Virus record (IMG/VR): IMGVR_UViG_3300047159_000049
Length of the DNA: 64,000 bases
Direction: 5' to 3' (one strand)
From: a virus
Lineage: Duplodnaviria; Heunggongvirae; Uroviricota; Caudoviricetes
A model generated the notes under the pieces. It did no database searches. It had not been told where the DNA came from and was given only the letters and a program-made list of their open reading frames with translations. Positions 5,477 through 64,000 of this stretch are shown in pieces. The position numbers and the translations under genes were made by a program. How positions within the stretch are numbered: the stretch's first letter is position 1; the number at the start of each line of letters is the position of its first letter.

Positions 5477-5493
5477 TTTTTTTTATTTTTTCC
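5477..5493 (-). repeat. AT-motif copy (T-run variant)
   Basis: Intergenic, immediately 5' of a sigma70-like promoter. Confidence 0.5.
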
Positions 5494-9503: not shown

Positions 9504-9523
9504 GGAAATAATAAAATAATTCC
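9504..9523 (+). repeat. AT-motif copy GGAAATAATAAAATAATTCC
   Basis: Abuts the ATG at 9524. Confidence 0.7.
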
Positions 9524-28775: not shown

Positions 28776-29456
28776 ATGTCAAAGCCAGTTATGGAAGGAT
28801 ACGAGCCTGAACAGCAGGCCGTCACATTCCAAGATTCTATCGCGACTTCCTTGTATAAGGATCGTGTTGTTCTGCTTTACGGCGAGGTGTCGGAGCAATC
28901 CGCCAGCCTCGTCATCGCGGAGCTCAAGAACCTCAGCAAGAAAGATCCAAAGAAGCCTATCGAGCTCGACATCATGTCGGGCGGAGGCGATATCACGGCA
29001 GGGCTCGCCATCGTCGATCAGATGATGGAGATCCAAGCGCCGATCATCACGGTCTGCAAAGGCTTCTGCGCCTCGATGGCGGCGGTCATCTTCTCGAGCG
29101 GCGATTACCGGCTCGTTCAGAAACACGGGTTCGTCCTGATCCATCAGGGCCGCACGTATCATCAGAACGAAATGGAGACCGTCCTCGACGCCGATGCCAG
29201 CCAGAAGATGATGCACATGCTCAATGACGCATGCCTCAATCTCTTGGCGGACAACTCCGGCAAGACCTATGAGCAGATCAACGCCGACACCCAGCGCGAC
29301 AACAACATGTCCGCCGAAGAGACCGTCAAATACGGTTTGGCCGACGCGGTCATGGAGTATGGCAAGCCGCTCGTCTTCAACAGCGACGACGTGTCTAAGC
29401 TCCGCAAGCGATACGTCCAGAATGCCGAGCGCAAAGCCAAGCAGTCTGGGAAATAA
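28776..29456 (+). CDS. ClpP-family serine peptidase
   Basis: GFCASMAA (Ser), VLIHQG (His) and a downstream Asp in the ClpP arrangement. Confidence 0.7.
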   Translation: MSKPVMEGYEPEQQAVTFQDSIATSLYKDRVVLLYGEVSEQSASLVIAELKNLSKKDPKKPIELDIMSGGGDITAGLAIVDQMMEIQAPIITVCKGFCASMAAVIFSSGDYRLVQKHGFVLIHQGRTYHQNEMETVLDADASQKMMHMLNDACLNLLADNSGKTYEQINADTQRDNNMSAEETVKYGLADAVMEYGKPLVFNSDDVSKLRKRYVQNAERKAKQSGK

Positions 29457-29470
29457 ATAAATAAATCCGG
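29448..29470 (+). repeat. AT-motif copy GGGAAATAAATAAATAAATCCGG
   Basis: Spans the ClpP stop, then a GC hairpin. Confidence 0.6.
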
Positions 29471-32671: not shown

Positions 32672-32992
32672 ATGCGCAAGCGCATCTTAATGGCGGCGAT
32701 CCTGCTGCCGATGGCGCTGGCATTAGCCGGATGCACCGATGGAAACGCCAATACCGCCAATTGGGACTACCCGGCGGTATATGGCGCCCATTTCTACGAG
32801 CCGCTCAAGAGCGGAAGGAACGACGTCAACATCGTGTCTTACTCGATGCTCGGGTATCACGACAGCGTCGTTATCAAGATCGTCACCGAGGACGACGTTT
32901 ATCTCGTCAGCCCGACGCAGGTCCTGCTGTTCCACGAGACCTGCCCGCATTGCGGGACGACGTACAAGTCAGCCGCCACGGCTGACAGCTGA
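32672..32992 (+). CDS. lipoprotein
   Basis: Signal peptide with lipobox LALAGC. Confidence 0.55.
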   Translation: MRKRILMAAILLPMALALAGCTDGNANTANWDYPAVYGAHFYEPLKSGRNDVNIVSYSMLGYHDSVVIKIVTEDDVYLVSPTQVLLFHETCPHCGTTYKSAATADS

Positions 32993-33234
32993 TGCCTTCC
33001 GAAGGATTCGTCCCGGAGTATTACGTAAGCATGCTCCGGGGCGTTTACAGAAAAGGCCAGCACGTCATCTGCGATCGGATGGTGTCAAACGGCCCCGGCC
33101 GGATGATACCGAGCGGATTCGACGGGACGATCAGCTTCGTCAACGACGACGGGAGCCTGGCCGTTCTGTGGAACGACGGGTCATCGATCCCGCTCGATCC
33201 GCTGAGGGATGACTTCCATGTCGTCCCTTGGTGA
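32992..33234 (+). CDS. hypothetical protein
   Basis: ORF of 80 aa, start overlaps the upstream stop (TGATG). Confidence 0.4.
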   Translation: MPSEGFVPEYYVSMLRGVYRKGQHVICDRMVSNGPGRMIPSGFDGTISFVNDDGSLAVLWNDGSSIPLDPLRDDFHVVPW

Positions 33235-47643: not shown

Positions 47644-47664
47644 ATTCCTGTAGGAGTGATAATC

Positions 47665-49164
47665 ATGCGAAAGACATGGCCAGACAAAGACGAGATGATC
47701 CGATGGATAACTGAAAACTCAGCCACCAGGACAGACGTGATGGCGCATTACGGATTCTCAAAGCAATCCATGCGCACCATCAGCGCCAAATACGGGCTTA
47801 AGGAATATCTCAAACCCATCTCCGAAGACGAGAGGATCGCCAGAAGCAAGGAAGCTGTCAAAGCCAAGTACGGCGTCGACAACGTCTTTAGGCTGAAATC
47901 GATCCAGGACAAATCCGCCAAAACCAACGTCGAGAGATACGGCTTCAGCTCCCCCAACAAGAACAAGGAAGTCGTCGCTAAGCGCAAGAAGACCAATCTA
48001 GTCAGATATGGCTATGCCATGCCGATGATGAACAAAGTCATAAAGGCCAAAGCCAACAAGACGAACCTGGAGAAGTACGGATCGGCATGCGTCCTGGCGT
48101 CTCCGGAAATAAAAAATAAAATCTCCAAGACGAGCGACGCCAAATACGGAACGCCTGTCATTCAGTCGAGAGATCTCACAGACATCGGCAAATCAGCCAC
48201 GCAATCAAAGGAAGCGATGTCCGCTTTCATAGAATCGCAATCAGACCGCACCAGCAAGCATCTCATGGACGAGCTCGGATACGAGTCAAGAACCGGATTC
48301 TTCATAATGATCCACAAGTACGGCTTGTTCGATCTGCTTGACTGCGACAAGGAAACGTCTTTCGCCGAGAAGGAAATAGCCGATCTGATAGAGTCGCTCG
48401 GATTCAAAGTCGATCGCAACAGACGCGATCTTCTTGGCGATGGGCGCGAGATAGACATCTACGTCCCAGACAGGCATCTTGGGATCGAATACAACGGGAC
48501 GTATTGGCATTCCGATCTCAAGAAGGATGACAAAGAGTATCATCAGCGCAAAGTCCTCGATGCCGAGAAGAACGGAATCCATCTGATTCACATCTACGAA
48601 TTCCAATGGGAGAATCCCGTCCTTAAGCCGATAATCATCTCAGTCGTAAAACTGTTCTTAGGCCTTAACTTCAATCGCGTATATGCGAGAGACTGCGTCA
48701 TCAAGACGATCCCGGAAAGCGTGAGCAGGCCATTCTGCGAGAGCAACCACATGCAAGGATATGTCTATGCCAAAATCACTTATGGGCTGTTCTCCAAATC
48801 AGGAGAGCTTCTTCAGCTGATGAGCTTCGGAAAGCCAAGATACAGCCATCTGGCCCAATGGGAGATCATCAGAGGATGCCCAGGATCGAATAACCTCGTC
48901 GTCGGAGGCGTGTCCAGGCTGTTCTCGCATTTCGTCAAAGACAACAGCCCGGAGTCCGTGCTGTCATACTGCGACCTCAATATGTTCGACGGCAAAGGAT
49001 ACAAAGCCATCGGAATGAATCTCGTCGGCGTGACAAAGCCAAACAAATGGGTGATCCTCCCAGACGGAAGGGTCATCGACAGAGACCCGTCAAAGTACGA
49101 AGAGTACAAAGGCTATCCGTCCATATACGGAGCTGGAAGCGCCGTGTACCTGTGGAAAAAATAA
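47665..49164 (+). CDS. homing-endonuclease-like protein: NUMOD-like K..TN..KYG repeats plus DUF559/Vsr-like PD-(D/E)xK domain
   Basis: Repeats ...KTNVERYG / KTNLVRYG / KTNLEKYG / SDAKYG. IDIYVPDRHLGIEYNGTYWH...GIHLIHIYE. Confidence 0.45.
   Translation: MRKTWPDKDEMIRWITENSATRTDVMAHYGFSKQSMRTISAKYGLKEYLKPISEDERIARSKEAVKAKYGVDNVFRLKSIQDKSAKTNVERYGFSSPNKNKEVVAKRKKTNLVRYGYAMPMMNKVIKAKANKTNLEKYGSACVLASPEIKNKISKTSDAKYGTPVIQSRDLTDIGKSATQSKEAMSAFIESQSDRTSKHLMDELGYESRTGFFIMIHKYGLFDLLDCDKETSFAEKEIADLIESLGFKVDRNRRDLLGDGREIDIYVPDRHLGIEYNGTYWHSDLKKDDKEYHQRKVLDAEKNGIHLIHIYEFQWENPVLKPIIISVVKLFLGLNFNRVYARDCVIKTIPESVSRPFCESNHMQGYVYAKITYGLFSKSGELLQLMSFGKPRYSHLAQWEIIRGCPGSNNLVVGGVSRLFSHFVKDNSPESVLSYCDLNMFDGKGYKAIGMNLVGVTKPNKWVILPDGRVIDRDPSKYEEYKGYPSIYGAGSAVYLWKK
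48105..48126 (+). repeat. AT-motif copy
   Basis: Intragenic, encodes EIKNKIS. Confidence 0.55.
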
Positions 49165-49201: not shown

Positions 49202-52200
49202 TCAGTAGTCCCAGATGGCTTTTATCATCCGCCCTAGCTCAACGAGTACTTTGTTCGAGTAGAGGTATGAGAAGAAGTCAGATGTCATGCGTCCTAATAT
49301 TCCTGTAGGAGTGCATACTGCATTGCATGGAAGCTCGCTATGATATTCCGACGTAGGAGATTCTCCTGCGGCAAACACCTTAGACACGACTCCCTTGAGA
49401 GCGCTCGTGTAAGTGATCTTGTCTCCAGGGCCGATCGGGTCGAGTATCTCAACGTAGTATTCGATGAGAACGCCTTGATACTGGCTTCCGTTGACCTTGG
49501 ACTTTCCTGAGCTGTCGGTTCCCATCTGGTTGGTCGTGTCTATATGCACGCTTCCGCCATGAGGGACGTTGTATTTGGTGAGGAACTCAGATCTGTCAAG
49601 CTGGATGCCTTTGTATTCCGATATGAGCTTTCTGAGGGTCGGGCTGAGCTCAGCCAAAGGCATATTGTAATACACCTTCACAGAAACGACGCTTCCGGAG
49701 TATCTAGAAAGGATCTTATCGCGTGATATCTCGTTCACGGCATTGGCGCCCAAGACATCTTTCATGTTGTTCATGTATTCGGCAGTCGATGGATCGAGAT
49801 AGCTCTTGGAGTATTCCAGAAGGGTATCCTCAGATTCAACCTTGTCTCCGGCATGAACCGTGCTGTAGATCGTCGCATTGGGGCCAAGCGCCACCGATGT
49901 CATCATCGTGAAGTAAGACGCGCATTCGTTTGACAGAGTCTCATCGACCATCGTCGAGTCCTCAAACGCGCCATCCGATGCGGCAAGCGCAACCTTGGCA
50001 AGCGTTCCAGGCATATAATCGATGTCCTTTCCCTTTCCGCTGAAATAAGACGGGTTGTAGGCAATGACGTCGCCTTTATTGAATCTCTCGCCTTGGCTGT
50101 ATTTGATGAGGAAGTGCTCTTTGATGAAGAATCCGCTGTTCGAGTTCTTAACGAGAACGTCGCCGAGATCGATCGCGTCGTTCGTCCCATCGTCATATGC
50201 CAGAATGGCGATGTGCTTATTGGTGTCGATTGTCTTGATTACTCCGTTCTTCTTGGCTTTGAAGCAGAAGTCATCGGATATCATGAACGCCATCGTCTTA
50301 TTTATTCCTGATCCGACAAGCTGCTTATGGGCTTTGACGACGGGCATCGTGTGCTTAGTCTGCGAAATCTGCATCGCTGAGCGAGGCGCATCCGACTGAG
50401 CCGACACGAACGATGCCAGCATCTCGGCAGGGCTTAGGATGTTCGTAGCCGACAGACTGCTCTTATCGACGTCTGGGATGTATCCGCGGATCGTCGAGAT
50501 CTTAGGATCATATGAAATCGATCGGCTCATTCCGGCCGTTCCGCCGAACTGAGTGTCGTTTCCTGACAGGAATCCGATCATGCTAGGATCATAAGCGCGC
50601 ATCTTCATGGTGTACGCCTTGTCCAGGTTGACGCCGTTGAATCCCTTTGCCGTGCAGTTTGAAAGGCTTTCAAGCTCAAGCACCGGGTTCAATACGCTTG
50701 CCGGATTGACGTTTACCTGGTTGGTCAGGGCCTTGATGAGGGCGTTCTTAGGAAGATCAAGCCCTCCTCTGTGCCCATTAAGGCGGCCGTTCTGATAGTT
50801 CTTGTATGCGTCGGCAAGGACTTTGTACAGAACAGCGTATATCTCTTCGTTTCCTCTGATGCGGTAGTTTCTTGCGTCGTTTAGCGATCGGCAGGTATTG
50901 GTCGTCAGAAGCGTGTTGGCGAATAAGAGCATCCCGACGATATCCGTAGGCTGCTTAAGATCTTTCTGAACGTCGTAGGTAATAGGATCGACCATCGCCG
51001 ACAGATGAAGCTTGATGGTGTTTCTGGCATACGAGTTGTATCCAAGGACATTGACGAAGAAATTGACATACGGATCCTCAGTGTCAAAGTCTCTGAAGTC
51101 GTATTGGTCGGTCTCCATCAAGCGAAGGACGTTAAGAAGCATCGTGTTCTTGAGATTGTCCAGGAAATAAAAATATTTATCCCTGAAACGGATCTCGACG
51201 TAATTGGAAAGAAGCGTTCTGTCGCGCTTGTCTGAAAGCGTGTATTTGACTCCGTATCTTCTCAAAACGCTGGTGATTCCTTCCATGAATCCGCACAGAG
51301 AGAAGATCGGATAGAACTGCTCGATCATCTTGGCTCTCGAATAGACGAAGCTCTTTCCGATAGACGGGATATCCGCATTCTGCAGCCCCAATGCAGCCAG
51401 AACGAATGCCTGGATGCAATCGGCAGCTTTGTTGTCAGACGCGATAGATCCTCCGTCTTTAGTCGGAATGGCCAGATAGACAGCTCCGTCAGGCTTGATG
51501 TGAATGACGTTGGATGAGTTCTTCTCGATCGCTATAGGGGTGTCCATCGAATCGTCTTTGAAGAATCCGTCTGGGAAGTCCATCGCGGATATCTTGCTCA
51601 TGATGCGCTGACGATCGAGGTCGATATCGTATCTCGGGGCGTCTATCGAAGAGATGCTAGACGCTAGCTCTTCATATTCGAAATCGCTGACGTATCTGTC
51701 GTTATGGACAGAATTGTCTCCCCAAAGGACAGTCCATCCCTTGGCAGAAGGCTCGGCGGTTTTGATCATCTTCAGAAGACGGACGTTTCTGCGCGAAACC
51801 TTCTCATTGGTGCGTTCAACCGTGATCTTGCTGTATGATGTCGAGATCTCGACGACGTTTGGCTTGGTCTTGACGATAGGAAGACGGAGAAGCTGCTTCT
51901 CGATGAACATCTTGTTTCCGTTGATGAAGATGAATCTGCCATCGATCACCTCAGGGATGTCGAGCGTGAATCCAAGCGACGATCCGTCGTCAGCTTTGTA
52001 ATGAGCCGTAAGGGTCATCTTCTTATTGAAGTCATCGCTCGAGTCAACGATGTTGATTCTGTCCATCGCGATCGGAAGGAACTGCGAGTTTGAGAAATGG
52101 GTGAGGATGCTCATCAGGTCTTTCTTGGCCTGCTTGGTGTTATAGTCTTCGTCAAGCGCCATCAATGAGCTATGCCTAACGCGGCTGTCGAAGTTGGCGA

Positions 52201-53539
52201 CATCGACGTCTATTTCCTTGTCATCGAGGAGAGACTCGGCATCGACGGCTATAGGAGAAGCCTTGCTTTCATCATCGTCTTTAGCGGCATATTTCGCAGC
52301 CGCCGCGGATTTCAGAGCCGACAGAACCGATGGCTTTACAGCGGTTCCGGCAGTTTGCTTCGATTTGTCTTCCGGCTCTTCTTTATCGGATGCAGACGAT
52401 TTTTCGAAATCATCTATGACTTTGGCCTCTTTCTCAAGGCCCTTGGCAAGCTGATTGAGCTTTTGGCTGTTGCTCTTCTTGGTCTCGACGTACTTAATGG
52501 CAGCCGCTTTCACATCGGGATCCGCTTCGATCGTTGTCTTTAGATCGTCATAGGACTTTCCGGCATTCTCTTTCTTGGAAAGATATCCGTCGATCTTCTT
52601 ATCGACGACAGCCGCGATGTCTCCTTCGTCTTTGGTGGCGGCGTCAAATGTCTCAGGAGCTCTGATCTTAAGTGACTTAGAGACTGACGTGAATACGAAA
52701 TTTTTTATTTTTTCCTTCGCTTCGTCGCTCTTGTCGGAGTCATCAGCCTCATCAGATCCATCGGAATCGACGTCATCTCCTTCTAGGGCCTCTCCCTTAT
52801 TCGCGTTATTGAGACGCGATATCTTAAGGAGATAGTCGTTGATCGATTTCTCAAGAGTCGGATCTGACGGATCCATGACCACGACAGCCTCGTTGTTAGG
52901 ATTATAGAAGATGATCCTGTCGAACATCTTATAGACGGACATATCGGCAAGGCCTTTTCTGAGCGTAAGAAGGAATAATGACATAGGGGTCACGTCTTCA
53001 ACGCTTGTGTCAAACAATCCCATTTTGGCGACTGATCCGAGTTTGTCAGAATAGTCGCAAATAGGGAAAATCAAATAATTCTTCTGATATCCTACTGAGG
53101 AAACAGCTTCAGGAAGGAACTCTTCCAGGAAGTCCTTCATCGCGATATACCTTGCAAATCCCTGCTTGTTTTCACGAAGAGCAAGGGTTTCTTTGAAATC
53201 AGGAATCATATCGTACACCAGATTTTTCTCGGCATACGATGTGACAAATGGCTTTCCAATTTTTAATCTACCGGAGCTTTTGTCTCTGAGCGAGGCATAA
53301 ACGGCAGCTTGATCCTCGCGAACGATCTTTCTGTTTAAAGGGCGGACCACACGAGGCGTGTACATGCAGTAAAGCTGCTGAGGCCTAAACAGCATATGAG
53401 TCATCACCGAAGCTATGTCGTCATAAGAATCCGTGGCCAGAACCACAAGATTTCCGTACATCTTTCTCTCTGTGTCGAAATTGATCGTGCGCCCTAGAAG
53501 GATACGATCCAACTTCATCTTACTCGGTGATACGAACAT
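49202..53539 (-). CDS. giant divergent RNA polymerase beta-subunit-like protein (1445 aa)
   Basis: RAYDPSMIGFLSGNDTQFGGTAGMSRSIS resembles the beta R(D)VHP..YGR.CP.ETPEG.N.GL.NSLS region. GDKITYTSALKGVVSKVF resembles GDK...RHGNKGVVS. Confidence 0.45.
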   Translation of the reverse strand: MFVSPSKMKLDRILLGRTINFDTERKMYGNLVVLATDSYDDIASVMTHMLFRPQQLYCMYTPRVVRPLNRKIVREDQAAVYASLRDKSSGRLKIGKPFVTSYAEKNLVYDMIPDFKETLALRENKQGFARYIAMKDFLEEFLPEAVSSVGYQKNYLIFPICDYSDKLGSVAKMGLFDTSVEDVTPMSLFLLTLRKGLADMSVYKMFDRIIFYNPNNEAVVVMDPSDPTLEKSINDYLLKISRLNNANKGEALEGDDVDSDGSDEADDSDKSDEAKEKIKNFVFTSVSKSLKIRAPETFDAATKDEGDIAAVVDKKIDGYLSKKENAGKSYDDLKTTIEADPDVKAAAIKYVETKKSNSQKLNQLAKGLEKEAKVIDDFEKSSASDKEEPEDKSKQTAGTAVKPSVLSALKSAAAAKYAAKDDDESKASPIAVDAESLLDDKEIDVDVANFDSRVRHSSLMALDEDYNTKQAKKDLMSILTHFSNSQFLPIAMDRINIVDSSDDFNKKMTLTAHYKADDGSSLGFTLDIPEVIDGRFIFINGNKMFIEKQLLRLPIVKTKPNVVEISTSYSKITVERTNEKVSRRNVRLLKMIKTAEPSAKGWTVLWGDNSVHNDRYVSDFEYEELASSISSIDAPRYDIDLDRQRIMSKISAMDFPDGFFKDDSMDTPIAIEKNSSNVIHIKPDGAVYLAIPTKDGGSIASDNKAADCIQAFVLAALGLQNADIPSIGKSFVYSRAKMIEQFYPIFSLCGFMEGITSVLRRYGVKYTLSDKRDRTLLSNYVEIRFRDKYFYFLDNLKNTMLLNVLRLMETDQYDFRDFDTEDPYVNFFVNVLGYNSYARNTIKLHLSAMVDPITYDVQKDLKQPTDIVGMLLFANTLLTTNTCRSLNDARNYRIRGNEEIYAVLYKVLADAYKNYQNGRLNGHRGGLDLPKNALIKALTNQVNVNPASVLNPVLELESLSNCTAKGFNGVNLDKAYTMKMRAYDPSMIGFLSGNDTQFGGTAGMSRSISYDPKISTIRGYIPDVDKSSLSATNILSPAEMLASFVSAQSDAPRSAMQISQTKHTMPVVKAHKQLVGSGINKTMAFMISDDFCFKAKKNGVIKTIDTNKHIAILAYDDGTNDAIDLGDVLVKNSNSGFFIKEHFLIKYSQGERFNKGDVIAYNPSYFSGKGKDIDYMPGTLAKVALAASDGAFEDSTMVDETLSNECASYFTMMTSVALGPNATIYSTVHAGDKVESEDTLLEYSKSYLDPSTAEYMNNMKDVLGANAVNEISRDKILSRYSGSVVSVKVYYNMPLAELSPTLRKLISEYKGIQLDRSEFLTKYNVPHGGSVHIDTTNQMGTDSSGKSKVNGSQYQGVLIEYYVEILDPIGPGDKITYTSALKGVVSKVFAAGESPTSEYHSELPCNAVCTPTGILGRMTSDFFSYLYSNKVLVELGRMIKAIWDY
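51163..51183 (+). repeat. AT-motif copy GGAAATAAAAATATTTATCCC
   Basis: Intragenic in the - strand RNAP-like gene. Confidence 0.6.
52697..52715 (-). repeat. AT-motif copy
   Basis: Intragenic in the - strand RNAP-like gene, encodes KEKIKNF. Confidence 0.55.
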
Positions 53540-53598: not shown

Positions 53599-53622
53599 GG
53601 GGAAAATAAAAAAAAGATCCCC
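53599..53622 (+). repeat. AT-motif copy GGGGAAAATAAAAAAAAGATCCCC
   Basis: About 60 nt upstream (T-run orientation in - sense) of the RNAP-like gene start. Confidence 0.65.
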
Positions 53623-55975: not shown

Positions 55976-56004
55976 TAGTCTGGCTTTATTTTTTTTGTTT
56001 CCCG
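55966..56004 (+). terminator. intrinsic terminator closing the ORF-poor 54.8-55.97 kb region
   Basis: AGCCAGAC-AGTTAG-TCTGGCT plus T-run. Confidence 0.55.
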
Positions 56005-56400
56005 CGAAGCCATCAGGCATTGAATGCCGTAAACTTGCGATTTAAGGCTACTAATATCAGAAGTCATGTCCTTCAATGAAGAAAGCCCATATGCGTTGAC
56101 GCGATTTGAATACTCAGTCTGAACTATGGCTTTTGTAGGATGCCCGTCGACGTAATTAACCTGGTTGGGATATATGTCTCTGAATGACCCATCCTCAAAG
56201 AAATCCTTGTCTTGGACGTATCCGCCATCGGTGATCTTTATGAAATCATTCTGCACCCTATTGCACAGCATCGAAAGATTGGCTTCTAGATTGTCCAGTC
56301 TGGCGTTTATCTCGTCGATGCTTTTTAAGATATAGACATCGATCTGAGTCACGACGATCGCGTATCTGGGATCTTCGTAATAATCATTTGGCATATTCAA
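55975..56400 (-). CDS. hypothetical protein
   Basis: ORF of 141 aa, ends at a bidirectional terminator. Confidence 0.45.
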   Translation of the reverse strand: MNMPNDYYEDPRYAIVVTQIDVYILKSIDEINARLDNLEANLSMLCNRVQNDFIKITDGGYVQDKDFFEDGSFRDIYPNQVNYVDGHPTKAIVQTEYSNRVNAYGLSSLKDMTSDISSLKSQVYGIQCLMASRETKKIKPD

Positions 56401-56410
56401 GTCCTTTCTT

Positions 56411-57040
56411 TCATACGCGCATATCCATCATTGCGCTCTCGATTGCTGATTTGACGTCTATCGTCTTGCCTTGGAGAACCGGAGCCAATTCTTTGAGCTG
56501 CTCAGTGATGATGTACGTCAGATCTTGAACGGGGTCTCCATTGGCTTTCTGATAGGCATCGACGTCGCCATATCGCATATACGTCCCGCACATATGAATC
56601 GCGTTTGACGGCGAATTATTGCTCTTTGACGTCCCAGACAGCACTCTGATCTTGGCATGATCTGATTTTTTCTTGACTTGCTTGAACACCAGGAGCGTTT
56701 CGACGGCATAATCATATTCTCCGTGGTGATGAACTTTCTTGGTGATGATGAACGTCGCTTCGACATCATCGATGTAGGATTTATTTATTATTATGTAATA
56801 CCAAGGCTTGCGAACTCGCCTCGGGGCATCCAGCTTTCTTGAGACCGGGATTATCTCCCCGTTTGCCACCAGATCATCGACGTCCTTGATATCGACGTTG
56901 TCCCCATCGATTGAGTCATATCCATATCTTGAATTGACGCAGATGCCGTCGCTCATGTCAAAAGGATCGAACGCAAACGTAGTCCGATCGTTAGGAGTTT
57001 TTGAGTAGAAGAGCCCTGCTATGATTGATTTGTATCTCAT
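56411..57040 (-). CDS. hypothetical protein
   Basis: ORF. The ATG at 57040 is chosen to avoid overlap with the upstream gene. Confidence 0.4.
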   Translation of the reverse strand: MRYKSIIAGLFYSKTPNDRTTFAFDPFDMSDGICVNSRYGYDSIDGDNVDIKDVDDLVANGEIIPVSRKLDAPRRVRKPWYYIIINKSYIDDVEATFIITKKVHHHGEYDYAVETLLVFKQVKKKSDHAKIRVLSGTSKSNNSPSNAIHMCGTYMRYGDVDAYQKANGDPVQDLTYIITEQLKELAPVLQGKTIDVKSAIESAMMDMRV

Positions 57041-57098
57041 CGCGATTATTGTACACCGTAAGCCAAGCAAAGAAAAGGCCAATCTTCTAAGATCGGCC

Positions 57099-57416
57099 TT
57101 ACTTAGCAACGGATGGCTTCTTGGCAGCCCTTGCGGCCATGATGGCTTTGAGCTTCGCCTTGATCGGATTGTCATCATCTGAGCTTTCGTTGAGAATGCC
57201 TTGATCGGCATATGGCTTTATTCCCACGTTGACGCAGCTCTCGGCGATGTAGTGCTCGGTGTCTCCGCCGAAGCGATATTGGAATTTGCCGTCGTAATAT
57301 CCGCACTCATATGAGATTCCCTCATTGATGAGATATTCTTCCGGGGTCCATCTTTCCTGGTCGAACCCGAGATCTTTTAGAACGGCGTATGCCTGGTTTT
57401 CATTTAGTACGATCAT
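57099..57416 (-). CDS. hypothetical protein
   Basis: ATG at 57416 downstream of a promoter, long leader and terminator arrangement. Confidence 0.45.
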   Translation of the reverse strand: MIVLNENQAYAVLKDLGFDQERWTPEEYLINEGISYECGYYDGKFQYRFGGDTEHYIAESCVNVGIKPYADQGILNESSDDDNPIKAKLKAIMAARAAKKPSVAK

Positions 57417-57438
57417 AATCAGTTGTTCCCGCCTTAGC

Positions 57439-57459
57439 GGGAAATAAAAAAAATAACCC
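57439..57459 (+). repeat. AT-motif copy GGGAAATAAAAAAAATAACCC
   Basis: Overlaps the - strand attenuator/terminator. Confidence 0.6.
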
Positions 57460-57470
57460 TTACGGGTTAT
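57439..57470 (-). terminator. intrinsic terminator or attenuator in the leader of the 57416 gene
   Basis: Hairpin ATAACCCGTAAGGGTTAT followed by a U8 run on the - strand. Confidence 0.5.
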
Positions 57471-57703
57471 TCTCTTAGCCAAGGTCTTTGCCATTTCTGG
57501 CTTCCGTGGGACTACCTTAGCGAGCCCTTACCTTTCCATCTGAGACGCGCGCGTTCCGTGATCTTGCGATCATTGGGAACGGAATCGAATCTCGCCGGAT
57601 AGACACCGCCCGTTTCTTTTCCGACGGCCGGAGATCGGAGCCCTTCAAACGTGCCGATCGAGCACTTGGGCAGCTTCTTAGGTTTCCCCGAGATGCAAGT
57701 ATG

Positions 57704-57731
57704 ATTATAATAGCTATTTTAGAAGTGTCAA
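57704..57731 (-). promoter_or_regulatory. consensus sigma70-like promoter TTGACA-N16-TATAAT on the - strand
   Basis: Perfect hexamers. It drives an approximately 240-nt leader that ends in an intrinsic terminator before the 57416 start. Confidence 0.55.
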
Positions 57732-57737
57732 GTGAAA

Positions 57738-58676
57738 TCAAACAATTTTGTTTAAAATCGCCGAAGACACTTTAGCTCGTAGCTCATCGGCATCGACAAC
57801 TCCCGCATCTATAAGCTCTTTTACGACATCTTCGACGTCCATGCCTATTTCAGCGGGGTCGTTATCGTCTCCGATAACGAAGTCCTTAGACTTGACTGGT
57901 ATCTTCACGTCATAGCTTCTTTGCTTGAACGCGATGCCTCCGACCGTATATCCGTTTGATTTAAGCCCATCGTCGATGTAAATGCTTCCGGTGGTCGTCG
58001 TGCTTCCTTTTATGACATACGCCAAACTTCCCAAGGCATTGATGTCATCGATAAGCTCATCTGACGAAATGCAATTGTCGCTGTATTTTCTAGGCTTCTT
58101 CGATAATCCGCTGTAGGACACGGAAGGAGTAGCCTCCGTGTCATCGTAATTAAGGCATAAGTCCGCGCCTATCGTCATATTGATGCGATAATCTTTGGCC
58201 AACGCGTCATATTCCCAGGTCTGCGTGATGCTTACCAGCAGCCCAAGATCTTTCTTTAAACGGTCGCTGACCAAGAGAGTCCATTTTCCATTGGGGGTGT
58301 CGTTCGACATTATGGCGCTTGCTTTTCCGTTGAGGAACTCGCTGATATCCGAAACGGATACTGACGAATCGTCGCAGGCGCAGAATCCAAGATATTGGTA
58401 ATCCTTTCCTAAGGTCTTTGACGCAGCGCTTTTCGGATCGGCTTTCCTTGACATGACAAGAACCCTGATCTTAGACGATGAACTAATCGGGCATCCTTTG
58501 CCAGAGTATGCGTATATAGCTTCGACCGTCTCATCCTCAGGATCGGCAGTCCCTTCATCGCTGTCGCACAGCTGAAGCCCTGTCAACGCCCCAGAAAAAG
58601 ACGATTTGATAGAATCTATTAGTTTCACTTCGTAATTGGTTGATGACAACATTGAGCTACCGACGGTAAGATTCAC
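57738..58676 (-). CDS. hypothetical protein
   Basis: ORF of 312 aa. Confidence 0.5.
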   Translation of the reverse strand: MNLTVGSSMLSSTNYEVKLIDSIKSSFSGALTGLQLCDSDEGTADPEDETVEAIYAYSGKGCPISSSSKIRVLVMSRKADPKSAASKTLGKDYQYLGFCACDDSSVSVSDISEFLNGKASAIMSNDTPNGKWTLLVSDRLKKDLGLLVSITQTWEYDALAKDYRINMTIGADLCLNYDDTEATPSVSYSGLSKKPRKYSDNCISSDELIDDINALGSLAYVIKGSTTTTGSIYIDDGLKSNGYTVGGIAFKQRSYDVKIPVKSKDFVIGDDNDPAEIGMDVEDVVKELIDAGVVDADELRAKVSSAILNKIV

Positions 58677-58713
58677 AATTCCTTTCTCCTCCGCATACGA
58701 ATTGTATCATACA

Positions 58714-61245
58714 TCACTTCGAATGTGAATATTTTTGTTTTTCCGGAATCCTTGAGAACAGATTATCCATAGTGAAGTACACGACAGGCATCGCCAGAAC
58801 GCTGATCAAAATCATCAGCCAATCCCCGCTGGATAATGCGCTAAGCGTTCCTCCGAGATCGAATATCTTTGAGAACGCGTCATAGTACGCGCCATCTATT
58901 TTTATAACCCATAAATGCATTACGCCATCGGATGCGATTTTGAAAAGGCTGGTAGAGCATCCGCCAAACGCGCTGAGAGGAAGGAACATCGAGTATATCA
59001 CGGCCCCAGCCATGTTGCCGATGAACACTCCGGACCTATATCCGTTCATAGGAACGCTTATGCGGAACAGAACCATGAACGACGCTATCGAATAAAGCAT
59101 GCAGATCAGAGTTTTGTCTTTCATCGTCGGAGCGACTATGCTCCATGTCTGCCCGCCCGAAAGCCATATCTTTCCAACAAGAACCGACCCGGCAAGCAGC
59201 AACGCGGCCGGTATCGCTCGCACCATGATATTGCGTTTGAATGATCCTGAAAGCCTTTCCTGGCAAGGCTCGACCGACAGGAAGAACGAGGCGATCCCGA
59301 TGACGAATGTCTCCATCAAGGCAAGATTTTCCATCTCGAGAGGGAAATAATAAAATAATCCGCACAGCGTCATTATCCCAAGAAGCATCATCGAGAAAGT
59401 CTTCATCAGGAACAAAGTTGAAGTCCTGGTTATGTTGTTGACGACTCTGCGCCCTTCGCCTATAGCAGCCGGAAGATCATCGAAATTAGAATCGATGAGA
59501 ACGATGTTGGAAACCGCTTTGGCGGCATCCGCCCCTCCGGCCATGGCGACCGAGCAATCCGCTGTCTTCAGAGATATGACGTCATTGACCCCGTCTCCGG
59601 CATACGCCACTTTATGGCCTTGCTTCTGAAGAGCCTTGATGATCTTAGCCTTCTGCTCCGGGCTAACGCGCCCAAACACATTGAAATCCGCCGCCATCTG
59701 AGGGATATCCTCATCTCGGATCCCCTCCATAGAAACCGCCTTGTCCCAATCTGGGACTCCGGCTTCTTTGGCGATCTGCGACACGGTTGATGGATTGTCG
59801 CCAGAGATGATCTTGACGCTGACGGAATTGTCTTTGAACCATTTCATCGTGCTGATGACCGCTGGCCTGACGCCATCCCTAAGCACTATGAGAGCCAGCG
59901 GATCGATGTCAGCCGATCTGTCCTCTCCTTGCGGCTGCAGGCTTCCATGGCGCCTTGCGAACAAGACGACCCGAAGCCCTCTGGAAGCCAGCTTCGCGTA
60001 TTCTGAAAGTATGATAGAATCCCCGGTGATATATTCCGGCGCTCCCAAAACGTAAATGAATCCGTCAGGCATCCCGGCAGAAGACGTCTTCCTGTCGCTG
60101 GAGAACTCAAGCACTTCCTGAGCCGTCATCGACCCTACGGATCCGAACTGAGCTATCAGAGCGGCTGACGTCGCGTTGCTCGTCTTGAATGAGCCGATGA
60201 AAGATGACAGAAGATCGACGAGCTGATTGTCTTTGACCTTTCGGCTGAGGCTGATTATGGAATCAACCTTCATATGCCCGTCCGTAAGGGTTCCCGTCTT
60301 GTCGAACGCGACGGTGTCTACCCTGGCCAGCATCTCGATGGAATACATGTCCTGAACGAGCGCTTTCTTCGACGCTAATTTGATTATTCCGACGGCAAGC
60401 GCTATGGACGTAAGGAGAATCATCCCTGAAGGAATCATGCCGACCATCATGGTCCCTGTCGGGATTATGACGTCGGACTCAAACGAAGTCGTGTACGCCG
60501 CCGGCATCCCGTTGGTAAGCCAAAGCTTAAGCCCCAGGGCGAATCCGAGCGGGACGATGATGCACGCCAGAACCTTGAGCAGCCACATGATCGTGGTCAT
60601 CAGCTCAGACTTGGCTCTCTTGAATTCCTTGGCTTTGTTTTGGATGCCGGACGCGTAAGTCGATTGCCCCACGGCCGTAGCCACGATGGAGCATGACCCC
60701 GAAATGATGAACGACCCGGCAAGAACCTTAGCCCCGGATTCCTTCTTTATGGCGTCGGCCTCTCCGGTGAGAAGCGACTCATTGGCTTCGGCGCTTCCGT
60801 CGATGACGTCTCCGTCGACAGGGATCTGATCGCCAGATCTCAGAATGACGACGTCTCCCAAAACGATGTCGTCGGAATTTATTTTTATTTCCTTCCCGTC
60901 TCTGCGAACAGATGCCTTAGATGAGCACACTATCGACAGCTTCTCTACGGCTTTCTTTGACCTGATTTCCTGGATGATTCCGATTGCCGTATTGAGGACA
61001 AGATTGATGCAGAATCCGTATTTCGACCAGTCATCCACCCCGAACACGAGGAAGCATATGGCTATGCCGGCAAGCAACGCGTTGAAGAATGTGAACACGC
61101 TGTCCCTGATGATATCCCAATAGGACTTCGAGCATTTCTTGTTGGTGACGTTTGCCAATCCATCTGACTTAAGCTGAGCGGCTTTCTCAGACGTAAGCCC
61201 CTGCGAACGGCTGTCGACGATCTTTGCATTTTGGTGTGTTTTCAT
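58714..61245 (-). CDS. P-type cation-transporting ATPase (P2-like)
   Basis: DKTGTLT, TGEADAI, GDGVNDV motifs. N-terminal GLTSEKAAQLKSDG. Multiple TM segments. Confidence 0.85.
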   Translation of the reverse strand: MKTHQNAKIVDSRSQGLTSEKAAQLKSDGLANVTNKKCSKSYWDIIRDSVFTFFNALLAGIAICFLVFGVDDWSKYGFCINLVLNTAIGIIQEIRSKKAVEKLSIVCSSKASVRRDGKEIKINSDDIVLGDVVILRSGDQIPVDGDVIDGSAEANESLLTGEADAIKKESGAKVLAGSFIISGSCSIVATAVGQSTYASGIQNKAKEFKRAKSELMTTIMWLLKVLACIIVPLGFALGLKLWLTNGMPAAYTTSFESDVIIPTGTMMVGMIPSGMILLTSIALAVGIIKLASKKALVQDMYSIEMLARVDTVAFDKTGTLTDGHMKVDSIISLSRKVKDNQLVDLLSSFIGSFKTSNATSAALIAQFGSVGSMTAQEVLEFSSDRKTSSAGMPDGFIYVLGAPEYITGDSIILSEYAKLASRGLRVVLFARRHGSLQPQGEDRSADIDPLALIVLRDGVRPAVISTMKWFKDNSVSVKIISGDNPSTVSQIAKEAGVPDWDKAVSMEGIRDEDIPQMAADFNVFGRVSPEQKAKIIKALQKQGHKVAYAGDGVNDVISLKTADCSVAMAGGADAAKAVSNIVLIDSNFDDLPAAIGEGRRVVNNITRTSTLFLMKTFSMMLLGIMTLCGLFYYFPLEMENLALMETFVIGIASFFLSVEPCQERLSGSFKRNIMVRAIPAALLLAGSVLVGKIWLSGGQTWSIVAPTMKDKTLICMLYSIASFMVLFRISVPMNGYRSGVFIGNMAGAVIYSMFLPLSAFGGCSTSLFKIASDGVMHLWVIKIDGAYYDAFSKIFDLGGTLSALSSGDWLMILISVLAMPVVYFTMDNLFSRIPEKQKYSHSK
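59342..59361 (+). repeat. AT-motif copy GGGAAATAATAAAATAATCC
   Basis: Intragenic in the P-type ATPase (encodes GLFYYFPL). Confidence 0.6.
60875..60892 (-). repeat. AT-motif copy GGAATTTATTTTTATTTCC
   Basis: Intragenic in the P-type ATPase (encodes KEIKINS). Confidence 0.6.
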
Positions 61246-61342
61246 GATAATTGGTTGTTACTTGCTTGCAAATTCACTTGGGGAAAACGCTGATTAGCAG
61301 ATTGGCAGATATATCATTTCTCTGAGAAAGAAGGATTAGCAT

Positions 61343-61882
61343 ATGCTGATTCACTGTATCAAAGCATCACGAAATCGCATCGTCGGATTCTGCGGAGACG
61401 ACGAATACGATTATTATGTCGTCTACAAAACGGCATCCACCGCAAAGAACGAATTCGTTGACACCGAAGACACCATACATGAGCTGGTCGGAAGATTCCC
61501 AACGGCCTCAGGAGAAAGCTTCATCGAGGCCATATTCCCGGAGCTCGCAGGGCATCCTCGCCTTGCCAAGCGGCACTACTTCGACCAAGCGGTCATCGAG
61601 CTTGCCAAAGCGGCTATCTTAGTCAATGGCAGCAAGATCGACGGCGAGGTTAGGCTCCCAAGCAATCCGTTCGTTCGCAAAGGAGGCCCATTCGACAGAC
61701 GCCTTGACTTCAAGACGCTGAAGGATACCGCAATCCTCTATCACAGAGACCGCGCCCATGGCTGGATAGTCGATAAGGTATTCGACTGCCAGACTAAGTA
61801 TCAGGCCGTTGTTCTTGAGGCTTTCAAAAACGGAGCCAATGACTCCGAGCTTGAGGATCTCGCTAAAGAAAAGACCGAGTGA
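61343..61882 (+). CDS. hypothetical protein
   Basis: ORF with an ATG start. Confidence 0.45.
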   Translation: MLIHCIKASRNRIVGFCGDDEYDYYVVYKTASTAKNEFVDTEDTIHELVGRFPTASGESFIEAIFPELAGHPRLAKRHYFDQAVIELAKAAILVNGSKIDGEVRLPSNPFVRKGGPFDRRLDFKTLKDTAILYHRDRAHGWIVDKVFDCQTKYQAVVLEAFKNGANDSELEDLAKEKTE

Positions 61883-61894
61883 CGACCACCCGAT

Positions 61895-61909
61895 CTTTTT
61901 TTTATTTCC
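61895..61909 (-). repeat. AT-motif variant (T-run plus ATTTCC)
   Basis: Between convergent genes. Confidence 0.4.
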
Positions 61910-62246
61910 ACCGGCGAATACGGCTTCCTTTAGAATTGATCGTCTTAGGATGCGCAAGCGCTTCTTTCTTGTGATTCTTAAGCCATTCGTCAACGGTATA
62001 TTCGAGCTCTTCTTCCCAGCAAGGATTGAACGATCCTCCGGAATAATCGCTGCCTTTGAAATACCAATATTCCTGCTGGCCATTATCGTCGCAGAACACG
62101 TCTATGTTGTACCCGCGGTATTTGACGCGCTTTTCAAAAACCGTTTCGCGCTCTTCCTTGGTAGCATGGCGATGCCCCTCTGAGAAAGCGTCGTATCCGC
62201 ATTTAGCCTCGTTGCCATTTTTGTCAATAATCATAGCAAATCCCAC
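61902..62246 (-). CDS. hypothetical protein
   Basis: ORF of 114 aa. Confidence 0.4.
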   Translation of the reverse strand: MGFAMIIDKNGNEAKCGYDAFSEGHRHATKEERETVFEKRVKYRGYNIDVFCDDNGQQEYWYFKGSDYSGGSFNPCWEEELEYTVDEWLKNHKKEALAHPKTINSKGSRIRRWK

Positions 62247-62259
62247 TTAGATTATATTA

Positions 62260-62943
62260 TTATTTTCCTGTTCTTGCAATCTTCGAATTGCTCGGAAGCG
62301 GCTTAAGAGAAGCCGACTTCAGTATTTTCTGAAGCTTATCCCTTTCAATAACCTTAATTCCATATTGCTCGGCAAGCTCTCTGGAAGGCTTCATCAAATA
62401 CCCATTGGTTATGATCATCAGATCTGAATGCCTATGGAATCTCTTTGATATGGCGAATTGCTTTATCAGATCAGGGCTGATTCTCCCTATAGCCAATTCG
62501 CAGCGCACCCTTGTTCTCCTGATGCCGCGCTTCTTGACTATTATGGAAGCGCCTTCCATTGAGTCAGGGCTCCCAAGCTTAACTCTGTATCCGCACTTGA
62601 GGAACATCATCGTGCACACTATTGAGAACTGCTCGGGGCTGACATCGTCTATCTCGGTAGCCTTCGAACTGGCCACTCCGTATACCTCGGACATGAATCT
62701 GTTCTTTATCTTGTCCTCGGCGCGCCTGTTTATGATCATCATGACGATCATGCCTGACGCTATAAGGAACAGCACGACGGCCCCGGCTATCAGCAGCGGC
62801 TGCTCAGAATGCGAAGCGATCGCTATGAAAAACAAGAACGTCGCAACGATGAATATTACGAATGCGGCAACGCCGATTATGACGTTCGCCTGCCGCTTCA
62901 ATTCGTTGGCTGATTTCTCACGCAATATCTTTAGATCTGACAT
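62260..62943 (-). CDS. membrane-anchored Mrr-like restriction endonuclease-domain protein (start uncertain)
   Basis: Two TM helices. The C-terminal GSPDSMEGASIIVKKRG...VRCELAIG resembles Mrr_cat. Confidence 0.4.
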   Translation of the reverse strand: MSDLKILREKSANELKRQANVIIGVAAFVIFIVATFLFFIAIASHSEQPLLIAGAVVLFLIASGMIVMMIINRRAEDKIKNRFMSEVYGVASSKATEIDDVSPEQFSIVCTMMFLKCGYRVKLGSPDSMEGASIIVKKRGIRRTRVRCELAIGRISPDLIKQFAISKRFHRHSDLMIITNGYLMKPSRELAEQYGIKVIERDKLQKILKSASLKPLPSNSKIARTGK

Positions 62944-62983
62944 AATTGATTGTTGAGGATCCCGTATTTTAGCCAGGATCAAG

Positions 62984-63011
62984 GATATATGATTCTTATG
63001 AAACAAAGGAG
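62984..63011 (+). promoter_or_regulatory. GATATATGAT-family element copy 6
   Basis: GATATATGATTCTTATGAAACAAAGGAGG, directly upstream of the 63022 start. Confidence 0.45.
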
Positions 63012-63021
63012 GCATATGCAT

Positions 63022-63600
63022 ATGCTTGTTTCAAAAAATGTCGCAGCGATCAGAGAATTGGTCGCACATCACCAAGCCGATAAAATCGGCTACATCGTGG
63101 ACAGATTCCACAATGAGTTGTCTTTGATCAGAGACAACGAAAATTTTGATCTGTACGTCGTTTATGAGCCGCACAACTTTGTCCCTAATCAGGACAGAGC
63201 TTTCGTTGTCATCTCGACAATGAAAGCAGCCAAAGAATTCATGGCCGCCATGATTGTCAGAGATGTCATCTCCTACAAAGATTTCTGCGATGCGAAATTT
63301 TCGTACATCGCAAAAACAAAAAAATCTTCGCCGGATGATTCGGCGAAGGTTTTAGCAAACGCGACGAACAGCGCTTACGAAAAGCTTATCGCGGCGATTT
63401 CGGCTCCGTCTAAGGCCGCGATGGAATCGGCGACGATCATCGTCTCTGGGGTTTCCCCTGAGGAGCCGTCAGCCATTCCGCAGCCTGAGCCGAAGCCTAA
63501 GCAGCAAACCGCTTCTCATCGCGACATCGGGTACCAGCCAACGGCTGCCGATATCGCAGCCAAGTTCGCGGTTGGCCGCAACGCTGCCTTAAAGAAGTAG
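63022..63600 (+). CDS. hypothetical protein
   Basis: ATG after an AAGGAGG RBS. Confidence 0.45.
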   Translation: MLVSKNVAAIRELVAHHQADKIGYIVDRFHNELSLIRDNENFDLYVVYEPHNFVPNQDRAFVVISTMKAAKEFMAAMIVRDVISYKDFCDAKFSYIAKTKKSSPDDSAKVLANATNSAYEKLIAAISAPSKAAMESATIIVSGVSPEEPSAIPQPEPKPKQQTASHRDIGYQPTAADIAAKFAVGRNAALKK

Positions 63601-63608
63601 CAAAAGAA

Positions 63609-63646
63609 AGGCCTGACAACAAGTCAGGTCTTTTTTTTTATTTTTT
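63609..63646 (+). terminator. intrinsic terminator
   Basis: AGGCCTGAC-AACAAG-TCAGGTCT plus T9ATTTTTT. Confidence 0.6.
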
Positions 63647-63841
63647 ACGAAGATCGTCTCGGATCGTCTTAATCGCGGATATCACGAACCAGATTCCGCA
63701 TAGCACGAGCAGAATGCACGCTACCAGCATGTATGTGTCGTGCCAGTAAAGAACGTTGTATGGTATCAGCACGGCCGAGGCTACGCCGATCAGCCCATAC
63801 ACGAAGTCGCATAAGACCCAGACGATGTCCATTCCCGGCAT
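63638..63841 (-). CDS. small membrane protein
   Basis: Two hydrophobic helices. Confidence 0.4.
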   Translation of the reverse strand: MPGMDIVWVLCDFVYGLIGVASAVLIPYNVLYWHDTYMLVACILLVLCGIWFVISAIKTIRDDLRKK

Positions 63842-63842
63842 A

Positions 63843-64000
63843 TCAGAATCCTAATGCCGACGGAGTCGCCGGAGCTTGAGGCTGAGATTTGGCGTCGTCT
63901 TGGCTCTGAATCTGCGTAGGCTCGGCAGCCGGGGCTTGGGTCGAAATGGTCTTGAGGCTGTCTTTGATCTCTCGATCCTGGGTCTCGATTTCTCTTCCGG
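63843..64000 (-). CDS. 3' end of a gene continuing beyond the window
   Basis: Open frame to the window edge, stop at 63843-63845. Confidence 0.3.
   Translation of the reverse strand, partial: GREIETQDREIKDSLKTISTQAPAAEPTQIQSQDDAKSQPQAPATPSALGF

Follow-up and report, generated by a model that had tools for sequence, protein, structure and literature searches.

A probable CtpE-lineage cation pump encoded in a Caudoviricetes phage genome

Do huge gut phages encode ion pumps of their own, and if so, of which kind? The question is raised by a 64,000-nucleotide (nt) stretch of the IMG/VR virus record IMGVR_UViG_3300047159_000049 (Duplodnaviria; Heunggongvirae; Uroviricota; Caudoviricetes), referred to here at its full length as the window, in which a minus-strand gene at 58714-61245 had been described preliminarily, from the sequence alone, as a P-type cation ATPase. 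We present here an analysis of this gene, its relatives, and its surroundings. The gene probably encodes a catalytically competent P-type ATPase of the CtpE lineage, from a clade found almost entirely in huge phages of gut Bacillota, that serves as a cation pump in infection. Phage P-type ATPases in general are not new: primary ion pumps of phages were first reported in 2026, from subfamily P2A only (PMC12880540). The window gene would add the CtpE-like, or "P6," pumps as a second and poorly understood family in huge gut phages, one that pipelines requiring four classical Pfam domains would miss.

Catalytic motifs and residence in the phage genome

The ATPase open reading frame (ORF) starts with ATG, contains no internal stops, and has exactly the bounds first given for it. 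The motifs on which the preliminary description relied (DKTGTLT, TGEA, GDGVNDV, and the characteristic N terminus) were confirmed by script. The gene and its motifs are as follows, with invariant residues taken from alignments A1 and A2 where these are named.

58714-61245, minus strand: P-type ATPase gene (CtpE-like family 23, or "P6," clade), 843 amino acids (aa), recognized by ORF, Pfam, NCBIfam, structure model, and trees
aa 16-20, minus strand: GLTSE, within the conserved N-terminal GLxxxE...GxN segment, located by script
60757-60768, minus strand, aa 160-163: TGEA, the A-domain dephosphorylation motif; T160, G161, and E162 are invariant (A1, A2)
60283-60303, minus strand, aa 315-321: DKTGTLT with the phosphorylated Asp315; D315, K316, T317, G318, and T319 are invariant (A1, A2)
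aa 401-404, minus strand: GAPE, located by script
aa 481-484, minus strand: SGDN, located by script
59578-59598, minus strand, aa 550-556: GDGVNDV, the P-domain hinge and Mg site; G550, D551, G552, N554, and D555 are invariant

At the sequence level, every catalytic motif is intact; the sister phages described below have TGES where the window ATPase has TGEA. Pfam detected E1-E2_ATPase (7e-41) and the HAD Hydrolase domain (2e-21), and the generic P-type model of NCBIfam, TIGR01494, was passed (score, 234.7; cut-off, 62.3). An AlphaFold2 model computed from an alignment of 65 sequences (predicted local distance difference test [pLDDT] score, 84.2; predicted template modeling [pTM] score, 0.78) contains the A, P, and N domains and has type II topology, with 10 transmembrane (TM) helices and helix TM4 interrupted exactly at aa 271-274 (I271-P-S-G274).

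The gene lies in a phage genome, as had been proposed. The window encodes a multisubunit RNA polymerase (RNAP) beta-like protein, a DNA polymerase, a Lon-like protease, NrdD with HNH insertions, SbcC-like and RecJ-like proteins, and a virion structural protein; no tRNAs were found in it. The exact ATPase protein occurs on at least 10 contigs, and parent contigs carrying the identical gene include one of 103 kb and another of more than 200 kb. The six contigs that were retrieved represent six different samples, are 99.94% identical to the window in nucleotide sequence over 7 to 8 kb with unchanged neighbors, and show no differences within the ATPase gene. Because the identical gene and its neighbors recur in six different samples, a chimeric assembly is excluded.

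Two sister lineages, whose ATPases are 73% and 71% identical to the window protein, both keep the local order of Mrr-like gene, small divergent ORF, ATPase, ~300-aa ORF, and RNAP beta-like gene. Since polymorphism within the strain is zero, selection was gauged between lineages by the ratio of nonsynonymous to synonymous substitution rates (dN/dS), which is 0.13 to 0.23 among the three lineages, with dS near saturation. The ATPase is 71% identical to that of sister phage L007 and 39% identical to that of the more distant phage L091, versus 68% and 41% for the RNAP beta-like protein; the pump thus diverges in parallel with the polymerase, as expected if it was inherited along with the phage core. 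A codon-usage comparison with the rest of the window, suggested at the outset, found a typical composition: guanine-plus-cytosine (GC) content is 0.517 and GC at third codon positions (GC3) is 0.646, versus window means of 0.514 and 0.671. Codon-usage fit is 1.4 standard deviations (SD) below the window mean, and neighboring minus-strand phage genes deviate likewise. The cellular relatives and other ATPase-bearing phages that were checked have 24 to 35% GC. By these measures, the ATPase gene is a long-term resident of the phage under purifying selection, and it looks to have been inherited vertically with the phage core genes.

In SRR35985047, the window phage strain (L004) and a ~70% identical sister lineage (L008) co-occur, each with its own ATPase. 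A megablast search of 56000-64000 against INPHARED phages returned no matches. An IMG/VR scan with the single protein found no relatives, but an alignment-based scan did recover them. In an exhaustive library of representatives at 50% identity, the window protein clusters with no other; it is 48% identical to the next representative and at most 44% identical to the rest, as it is to the nearest bacterial protein.

Family assignment and the phage-associated clade

The ATPase passed no curated NCBIfam subfamily cut-off.

P1B, TIGR01525: score 247.8, cut-off 346.25
P3A H+-ATPase, TIGR01647: score 245.1, cut-off 615.5
PMR1, TIGR01522: score 198, cut-off 798.3
PMCA: score 195, cut-off 507
MgtA (P3B), TIGR01524: score 174.4, cut-off 610.75
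SERCA, TIGR01116: score 172.5, cut-off 703.4
KdpB, TIGR01497: score 120.2, cut-off 527.9

An assignment to Ca, Mg, or K, as first suggested, therefore cannot be made: every Ca, Mg, K, and H subfamily cut-off failed, and the canonical Ca ligands are absent. The protein contains no CPC motif, whereas P1B outgroups have (A/S)CPCA, and it is modeled with ten TM helices rather than the eight of P1B pumps. By sequence, the closest solved structures are LMCA1 (1e-47), Pma1, and SPCA, within a range of 1e-47 to 1e-42. In a Foldseek search, SERCA, SPCA, Pma1, Na,K-ATPase, and MgtA all matched the model with TM-scores of 0.57 to 0.71 at 17 to 21% identity; since these scores do not set P2, P3A, and P3B structures apart, the fold search assigns no subfamily.

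Another placement is indicated by the Joint Genome Institute (JGI) KEGG Orthology (KO) label on a sister-phage copy (P0003, a 71% relative), which reads "cation-transporting P-type ATPase E." CtpE is TCDB family 23 (3.A.3.23), named "P6" in 2023 (Palmgren, PMC10654040), and that review is the only literature found under the name "P6 ATPase." Published members of family 23 include Clostridium, Enterococcus, Listeria, Roseburia, and Butyrivibrio. Among named genomes, relatives 32 to 41% identical to the window protein were detected in gut Clostridia, Christensenellaceae, Bacilli, Mollicutes, and Actinobacteria (Streptomyces, Collinsella, Nakamurella). In neighbor-joining trees on Kimura distances, an ingroup of Streptomyces, Nakamurella, Enterococcus, Listeria, Streptococcus, Clostridia, and phages separates from outgroups comprising P1B, LMCA1 (P2A), a second Listeria P2 pump, and MgtA/B (P3B) with 100% bootstrap support, and its taxa match the published family list. 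The Ile that replaces the TM6 Asp in this family (Palmgren 2023) is found in 187 of 204 family sequences, including the window protein, with I649-G650 anchored on the D-G of P2 pumps. The (V/I)PEGL motif described for TM4 (Gupta 2017; Palmgren 2023) is replaced by IPSGM in the window ATPase. We class the protein among members of the CtpE clade that lack PEGL, not among canonical P6 pumps.

Mycobacterial CtpE, the only family member that has been studied, is reported to take up Ca2+ in M. smegmatis (Gupta et al. 2017, PMC5615198). The window ATPase resembles the CtpE/P6 pumps in its length (~800 aa), its ten TM helices, the lack of fit to any P1 to P5 subfamily model, and the Ile at the TM6 Asp position, in a family that spans Actinobacteria and Firmicutes. 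It differs in having IPSGM instead of VPEGL, a carboxylate in TM6 (Glu645), ~50 additional aa in the outer loop between TM9 and TM10, and a phage as its carrier.

Within the family, the window lineage (100% bootstrap) lies inside an eleven-member clade with 85 to 86% support. The genomic contexts of other members are as follows.

L091 (IMG/VR, 333 kb): ATPase next to genes for an RNAP beta-like protein and a head-maturation protease, along with a homing endonuclease of the family also found in the window
L093 (214 kb): Gp23-like capsid gene 1.5 kb from the ATPase
P0025: ATPase adjoining a T4-type PNK/RNA ligase and a dCMP deaminase
P0021: contig of up to 340 kb, mostly ORFans
P0034: ATPase neighbors all ORFans
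Clostridium sp. CAG:568 (L077): SDR, alpha-amylase, and DHH genes around the ATPase, a plainly cellular setting that no other member shares

P0004, which is the best cellular match not belonging to the clade, has LeuRS, ValRS, and PGI as its neighbors. All 11 clade members have a TM9-TM10 loop of 39 to 67 aa, versus a mode of 13 to 23 aa elsewhere in the family. In the window protein, this feature is as follows.

58831-58983, minus strand, aa 755-805: extended TM9-TM10 extracytoplasmic loop, modeled as a small beta-sheet

The modeled strands (765-770, 776-783, and 786-789) have pLDDT values of 60 to 74, that is, moderate confidence. The mostly phage-borne clade with its ecto-loop deserves specialist attention, as does the exchange of carboxylates between TM4 and TM6 described next.

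Ion site, substrate, and competing explanations

Three positions in the membrane domain define the candidate ion site.

60421-60435, minus strand, aa 271-275: TM4 motif I-P-S-G-M, with Ser273 (60427-60429) in place of the PEGL Glu
59401-59403, minus strand: Lys615 in TM5 (motif LFLMK-T), a basic residue invariant across the family that may act as a built-in counter-charge
59311-59313, minus strand: Glu645 in TM6 (LMETFVIG); no other position examined in TM4, TM5, or TM6 holds a carboxylate

TM4 reads G-M-I-P-S273-G-M, and position 273 is S, A, T, or similar in 105 of 147 nonredundant representatives (at most 50% identity), including most Clostridia-type members. Lys occupies position 615 in 203 of 204 family sequences (145 of 147 representatives). 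The TM5 equivalents of SERCA N768 and E771 are Thr616 and Met619. The equivalent of the TM6 Asp is Ile649 if I-G is anchored on D-G, the equivalence given for CtpE (PMC10654040), or Thr646 in the HMMER register; neither is Asp.

Across the family, the single carboxylate belongs to TM4 in members of the PEGL type and to TM6 in those of the P[S/A]G[M/L] type, beside the TM5 Lys; the two helices never both carry one. In the 204 sequences, acids occur in both helices in 0, in TM4 only in 42, in TM6 only in 137, and in neither in 25 (14 of these with PQGL). The corresponding numbers for the 147 representatives are 0, 39, 84, and 24. These counts are not phylogenetically independent, and the exclusivity is complete in both sets. 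The published statement that P6 pumps contain PEGL holds, in these alignments, for only part of the clade. Together with the TM5 Lys, the TM4-or-TM6 rule provides a testable hypothesis on the P6 ion site. Eight of the 11 sequences with neither a carboxylate nor a TM4 Gln belong to the phage-associated clade; L091, L092/L093, L131 (P0021), L135 (P0025), L133 (P0034), and P0007 have no TM4 or TM6 carboxylate and keep Lys615 and the catalytic motifs. The window lineage retains Glu645. In the family 23 orthologue from Enterococcus faecalis (L136, OR846618.1), TM4 reads M-L-P-K-G-L, with Lys at the Glu position.

The pump would be inserted in the host cytoplasmic membrane during infection and would follow a Post-Albers cycle, in which ATP phosphorylates Asp315 and drives one cation through a single site. 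This site would be formed by the unwound TM4 backbone with Ser273, by Glu645 in TM6, and by Lys615 in TM5, the last serving as a built-in counter-charge. An Arg plays that part in plasma-membrane H+-ATPases and in LMCA1, and the Ser in TM4 recalls the fungal ENA Na+ pumps, although these are comparisons and not tests. In AHA2, the membrane site in TM5 and TM6 pairs one carboxylate with one basic residue (Asp684 and Arg655). The P3A pumps Pma1 and AHA2 thus share the logic of an acid and a base, as well as a TM4 without Glu, with the window ATPase, which aligns in a single stretch to TIGR01647 over residues 52-631 and to Pma1 over residues 14-603. They differ in that the basic residue of the window protein is Lys instead of Arg, at a position of putative equivalence, and in that it has no autoinhibitory termini. 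LMCA1 builds a basic residue into its one ion site. This compact pump of Listeria monocytogenes is the best solved match (~20% identity; PDB 6ZHF and 9EUQ); it has the TM4 Glu and TM6 Asp, unlike the window ATPase, and falls in the outgroup.

We weigh a monovalent cation or proton slightly over Ca2+ as substrate because the site consists of one carboxylate and one Lys, without canonical Ca2+ ligands. Such an electrogenic pump, which could keep the infected cell energized or ion balanced through a long jumbo-phage cycle, is the candidate that we place first, still at somewhat less than an even chance. Ca2+ comes second, as a tentative possibility suggested by analogy with CtpE of M. smegmatis, and a substrate of some other kind appears unlikely. 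The benefits to the phage might, speculatively, be membrane energization, ion balance, or exclusion of competitors.

Several observations weigh against a phage-borne CtpE-lineage pump built around this site. The one family member studied by experiment suggests Ca2+ uptake rather than a monovalent ion, and loss of the carboxylate in other phage lineages of the clade fits poorly with a simple shared cation site. Between the window protein and SERCA or LMCA1, the alignment of TM6 is uncertain by 3 residues. The Lys of the nucleotide-site motif KGAPE is replaced by Leu or Phe in the CtpE-like family, and no recognizable Shine-Dalgarno sequence precedes the ATG in 61246-61290 (aacaaccaattatcATG). 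Membership of CAG:568 means that the clade is not exclusively viral. The trees are not maximum likelihood, their outgroups include no P3A, P4, or P5 pumps, and they contain no verified CtpE sequence, so that the proposed link to CtpE draws on the KO label from JGI, the taxa published for the family, and the shared TM6 feature.

Of the competing explanations, a CtpE-type Ca2+ transporter survives best. It would import or export Ca2+ and so tune its level for replication, for envelope integrity, or for the exclusion of Ca-dependent competitor phages. It is favored by membership in the same family clade, by the Ile that replaces the TM6 Asp in both CtpE and the window ATPase, and by the reported Ca2+ uptake by M. 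smegmatis CtpE (PMC5615198, PMC10654040). However, CtpE and the other described members have VPEGL in TM4 where the window protein has IPSGM, one carboxylate with a lysine makes a poor site for a divalent cation, and the Ca assignment of CtpE itself comes from genetics in one species. We regard this explanation as possible but doubtful and, the canonical ligands being absent, did not adopt Ca2+ specificity by homology as the leading reading.

A bolder proposal extends the reading of a CtpE-lineage cation pump. Huge phages of gut Bacillota would have kept a clade of CtpE-like pumps of their own since before the lineages of the window and L091 split, with an extracellular beta-domain added; within the wider family, the carboxylate would have switched between TM4 and TM6, and several phage lineages would have lost it. 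In that case the phage proteins, rather than being calcium pumps, may transport H+ or Na+ electrogenically or move a new substrate, and so keep the infected cell energized. As a whole, we consider this improbable. If it were true, phage pumps could control the timing of lysis or resist membrane-depolarizing defenses, and they would form a natural mutational series for what P6 ATPases transport.

The phage clade might instead have been repurposed, either for another substrate or for a role at the cell surface, such as superinfection exclusion or envelope remodeling. The restriction of the long TM9-TM10 ecto-loop almost entirely to this clade would agree with such a change, as would its eight sequences without TM4 and TM6 carboxylates. 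The window lineage nevertheless retains Glu645, Lys615, and every catalytic motif, the loop model is of moderate confidence only, and another substrate has no independent evidence in its favor; we think repurposing quite unlikely.

The pump could also be of the same kind as those published in February 2026 from Jug and 85 other gut phages, which were defined by four Pfam domains plus Ca ligands (PMC12880540), that is, a P2A (SERCA/LMCA1-like) calcium exporter that lowers cytoplasmic Ca2+ in the host. The Jug-type pumps are likewise full-length P-type pumps of huge gut phages, acquired from host lineages and thought to alter host ion homeostasis. They are most like P2A pumps of Bacteroidaceae or Bacillota and have a co-transcribed upstream gene of 77 to 91 aa (PMC12880540). 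LMCA1 as the best PDB sequence match (1e-47), TM-scores of 0.65 to 0.68 to the SERCA and SPCA folds, and the occurrence of such pumps, some of them Bacillota-like, in those 85 further phages would all suit this identity. Against it, only two of the four required Pfam domains (E1-E2_ATPase and Hydrolase) were detected, so the window ATPase would fail that study's filter, and its family is a different one. TIGR01116 and TIGR01522 scored far below their cut-offs, fold scores to Pma1, Na,K-ATPase, and MgtA are equally good, and LMCA1 and the second Listeria P2 pump split off with 100% bootstrap support. The Ca ligands are gone, with Ser273 for the TM4 Glu, Met619 for E771, and no TM6 Asp. The window has ~50% GC versus 27 to 30% in Jug phages, the relatives of its ATPase are Clostridia-like, and its upstream neighbor is divergent. 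We judge a P2A exporter very unlikely; the idea that the window itself is a Jug phage was rejected on GC content and host.

That the region is host DNA, either an assembly chimera or a recently captured passenger gene without a phage role, is effectively refuted: although the close homologs outside the phage clade are all bacterial and the codon-usage fit is low, the same junctions recur in six samples, synteny holds across lineages that are only ~70% identical, even the nearest bacterial protein is distant, GC and GC3 are those of the phage rather than of the cellular relatives, neighboring phage genes share the codon-usage deviation, dN/dS is well under 1, and divergence parallels that of RNAP, all of which is stronger than the in-gene sequence motifs first offered against a host origin.

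Ion-pumping ATPases were initially called rare in phages, and this holds among catalogued phages. BFVD contains no phage P-type pump, and the full-length ones in it come only from giant eukaryotic viruses. Those pumps (chloroviruses, Yasminevirus, and others) are also virus encoded and full length but are of the PMR1 or Mg type and 12 to 19% identical to the window ATPase. Matches from a tblastn search of INPHARED (36 to 38% identity) were rejected as phage carriage: they are unannotated multi-contig records, and the four that were opened (H1, H4, H8, and H13) are flagged UNVERIFIED_ORG. The records (OR846587-OR848668; H1-H10 and H12-H17) are named "Enterococcus phage Efs 1-1-1" and "Listeria phage LM 4-11-1/4-14-1." One opened record (L139) encodes LMCA1, a host chromosomal gene, and such records inflate phage matches for host proteins.

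Neighboring genes, the GG-[A/T]n-CC motif, and other window features

The genes around the ATPase are as follows.

57738-58676, minus strand: 312-aa ORF, 37 nt downstream of the ATPase and co-directional; syntenic in L001-L010
61343-61882, plus strand: 179-aa ORF, divergent, upstream of the ATPase; synteny conserved, no family matches
62260-63021, minus strand: Mrr-like nuclease-domain protein with two N-terminal TM helices (Pfam Mrr_cat, 7e-11; PADLOC ZorD Mrr-like domain, 2e-09)
63638-63841, minus strand: 67-aa ORF, almost wholly two hydrophobic helices, a small membrane protein; syntenic in L001-L004

The 312-aa ORF is preceded by a strong GGAGGAG ribosome-binding site (58677-58700 region) and has no Pfam, PHROG, or PADLOC match. 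It is possibly co-transcribed with the ATPase and is a likelier functional partner than the Mrr-like gene. The latter had been introduced as the neighbor of the ATPase; it does encode a membrane-anchored Mrr-like domain, but it is two genes away, separated by 1014 bp and two small ORFs. Its synteny with the ATPase is confined to the window clade, and in the more distant phage loci L131 and L135, gene calling yielded no Mrr_cat gene close to the ATPase. PADLOC returned no match for the ATPase or its small neighbors.

The ATPase gene had been noted to contain two in-frame copies of an "AT-motif," and both were located. The motif is real: in a genome of ~50% GC, it is a block of 12 to 17 nt made up of A and T only and flanked by GG...CC. 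The window contains 38 A/T blocks of at least 12 nt bracketed in this way, and the strict form GG[AT]11-18CC occurs 16 times versus 0.26 expected, with a maximum of 2 in composition-matched shuffles of the window. The copies in the gene are as follows.

60874-60892: copy 1, GG-[A/T]15-CC, GGAAATAAAAATAAATTCC on the gene strand, read in frame as E-I-K-I-N-S (aa 119-124)
59343-59361: copy 2, GG-[A/T]15-CC, GGATTATTTTATTATTTCC on the gene strand, read in frame as L-F-Y-Y-F (aa 630-634)

In sister phage L007, the 19-mer of copy 1 recurs unchanged at the homologous position. Copy 2 is not kept in the sister phages, whose ATPase genes hold copies at other sites: L007 has three, one of them the identical homologous 19-mer, and L010 has one, elsewhere. 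Neither copy brings an insertion or deletion relative to homologs. The motif is common to L007 and L010 and absent from low-GC phages with related ATPases. That a motif confined to this clade sits within the ATPase gene at positions differing between lineages also points to long residence in the phage. Examples of the A/T blocks lie at 1454-1468, 5477-5491, 9506-9521, 29451-29466, 53603-53615, 59345-59359, and 60876-60890. Copies that are T rich in the direction of transcription stand mostly 13 to 116 nt upstream of gene starts, and A-rich copies lie within ORFs or across stop codons. The motif could be a phage RNA polymerase signal or a protein-binding site.

An ORF at 32739-33212 (plus strand) is strongly atypical in codon usage (GC, 0.589; GC3, 0.481; log-likelihood, -1.6 versus a mean of -1.0), and this frame probably does not represent a true gene. 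Three further features were recorded.

34031-35647 and 35574-39830, plus strand: NrdD region, in which NrdD is split and expanded
47656-49164, plus strand: homing-endonuclease gene (phrog_3339), adjoining the RNAP beta-like gene
49202-53539, minus strand: RNAP beta-like gene, 1445 aa

In the 1418-aa ORF of the NrdD region, stretches of NrdD alternate with matches to HNH endonuclease and with helicase-like, thymidylate-synthase-like, and thioredoxin-like matches, a layout that suggests inteins or homing-endonuclease insertions. In L091, the ATPase itself lies between a phrog_3339-family endonuclease and the RNAP beta-like gene.

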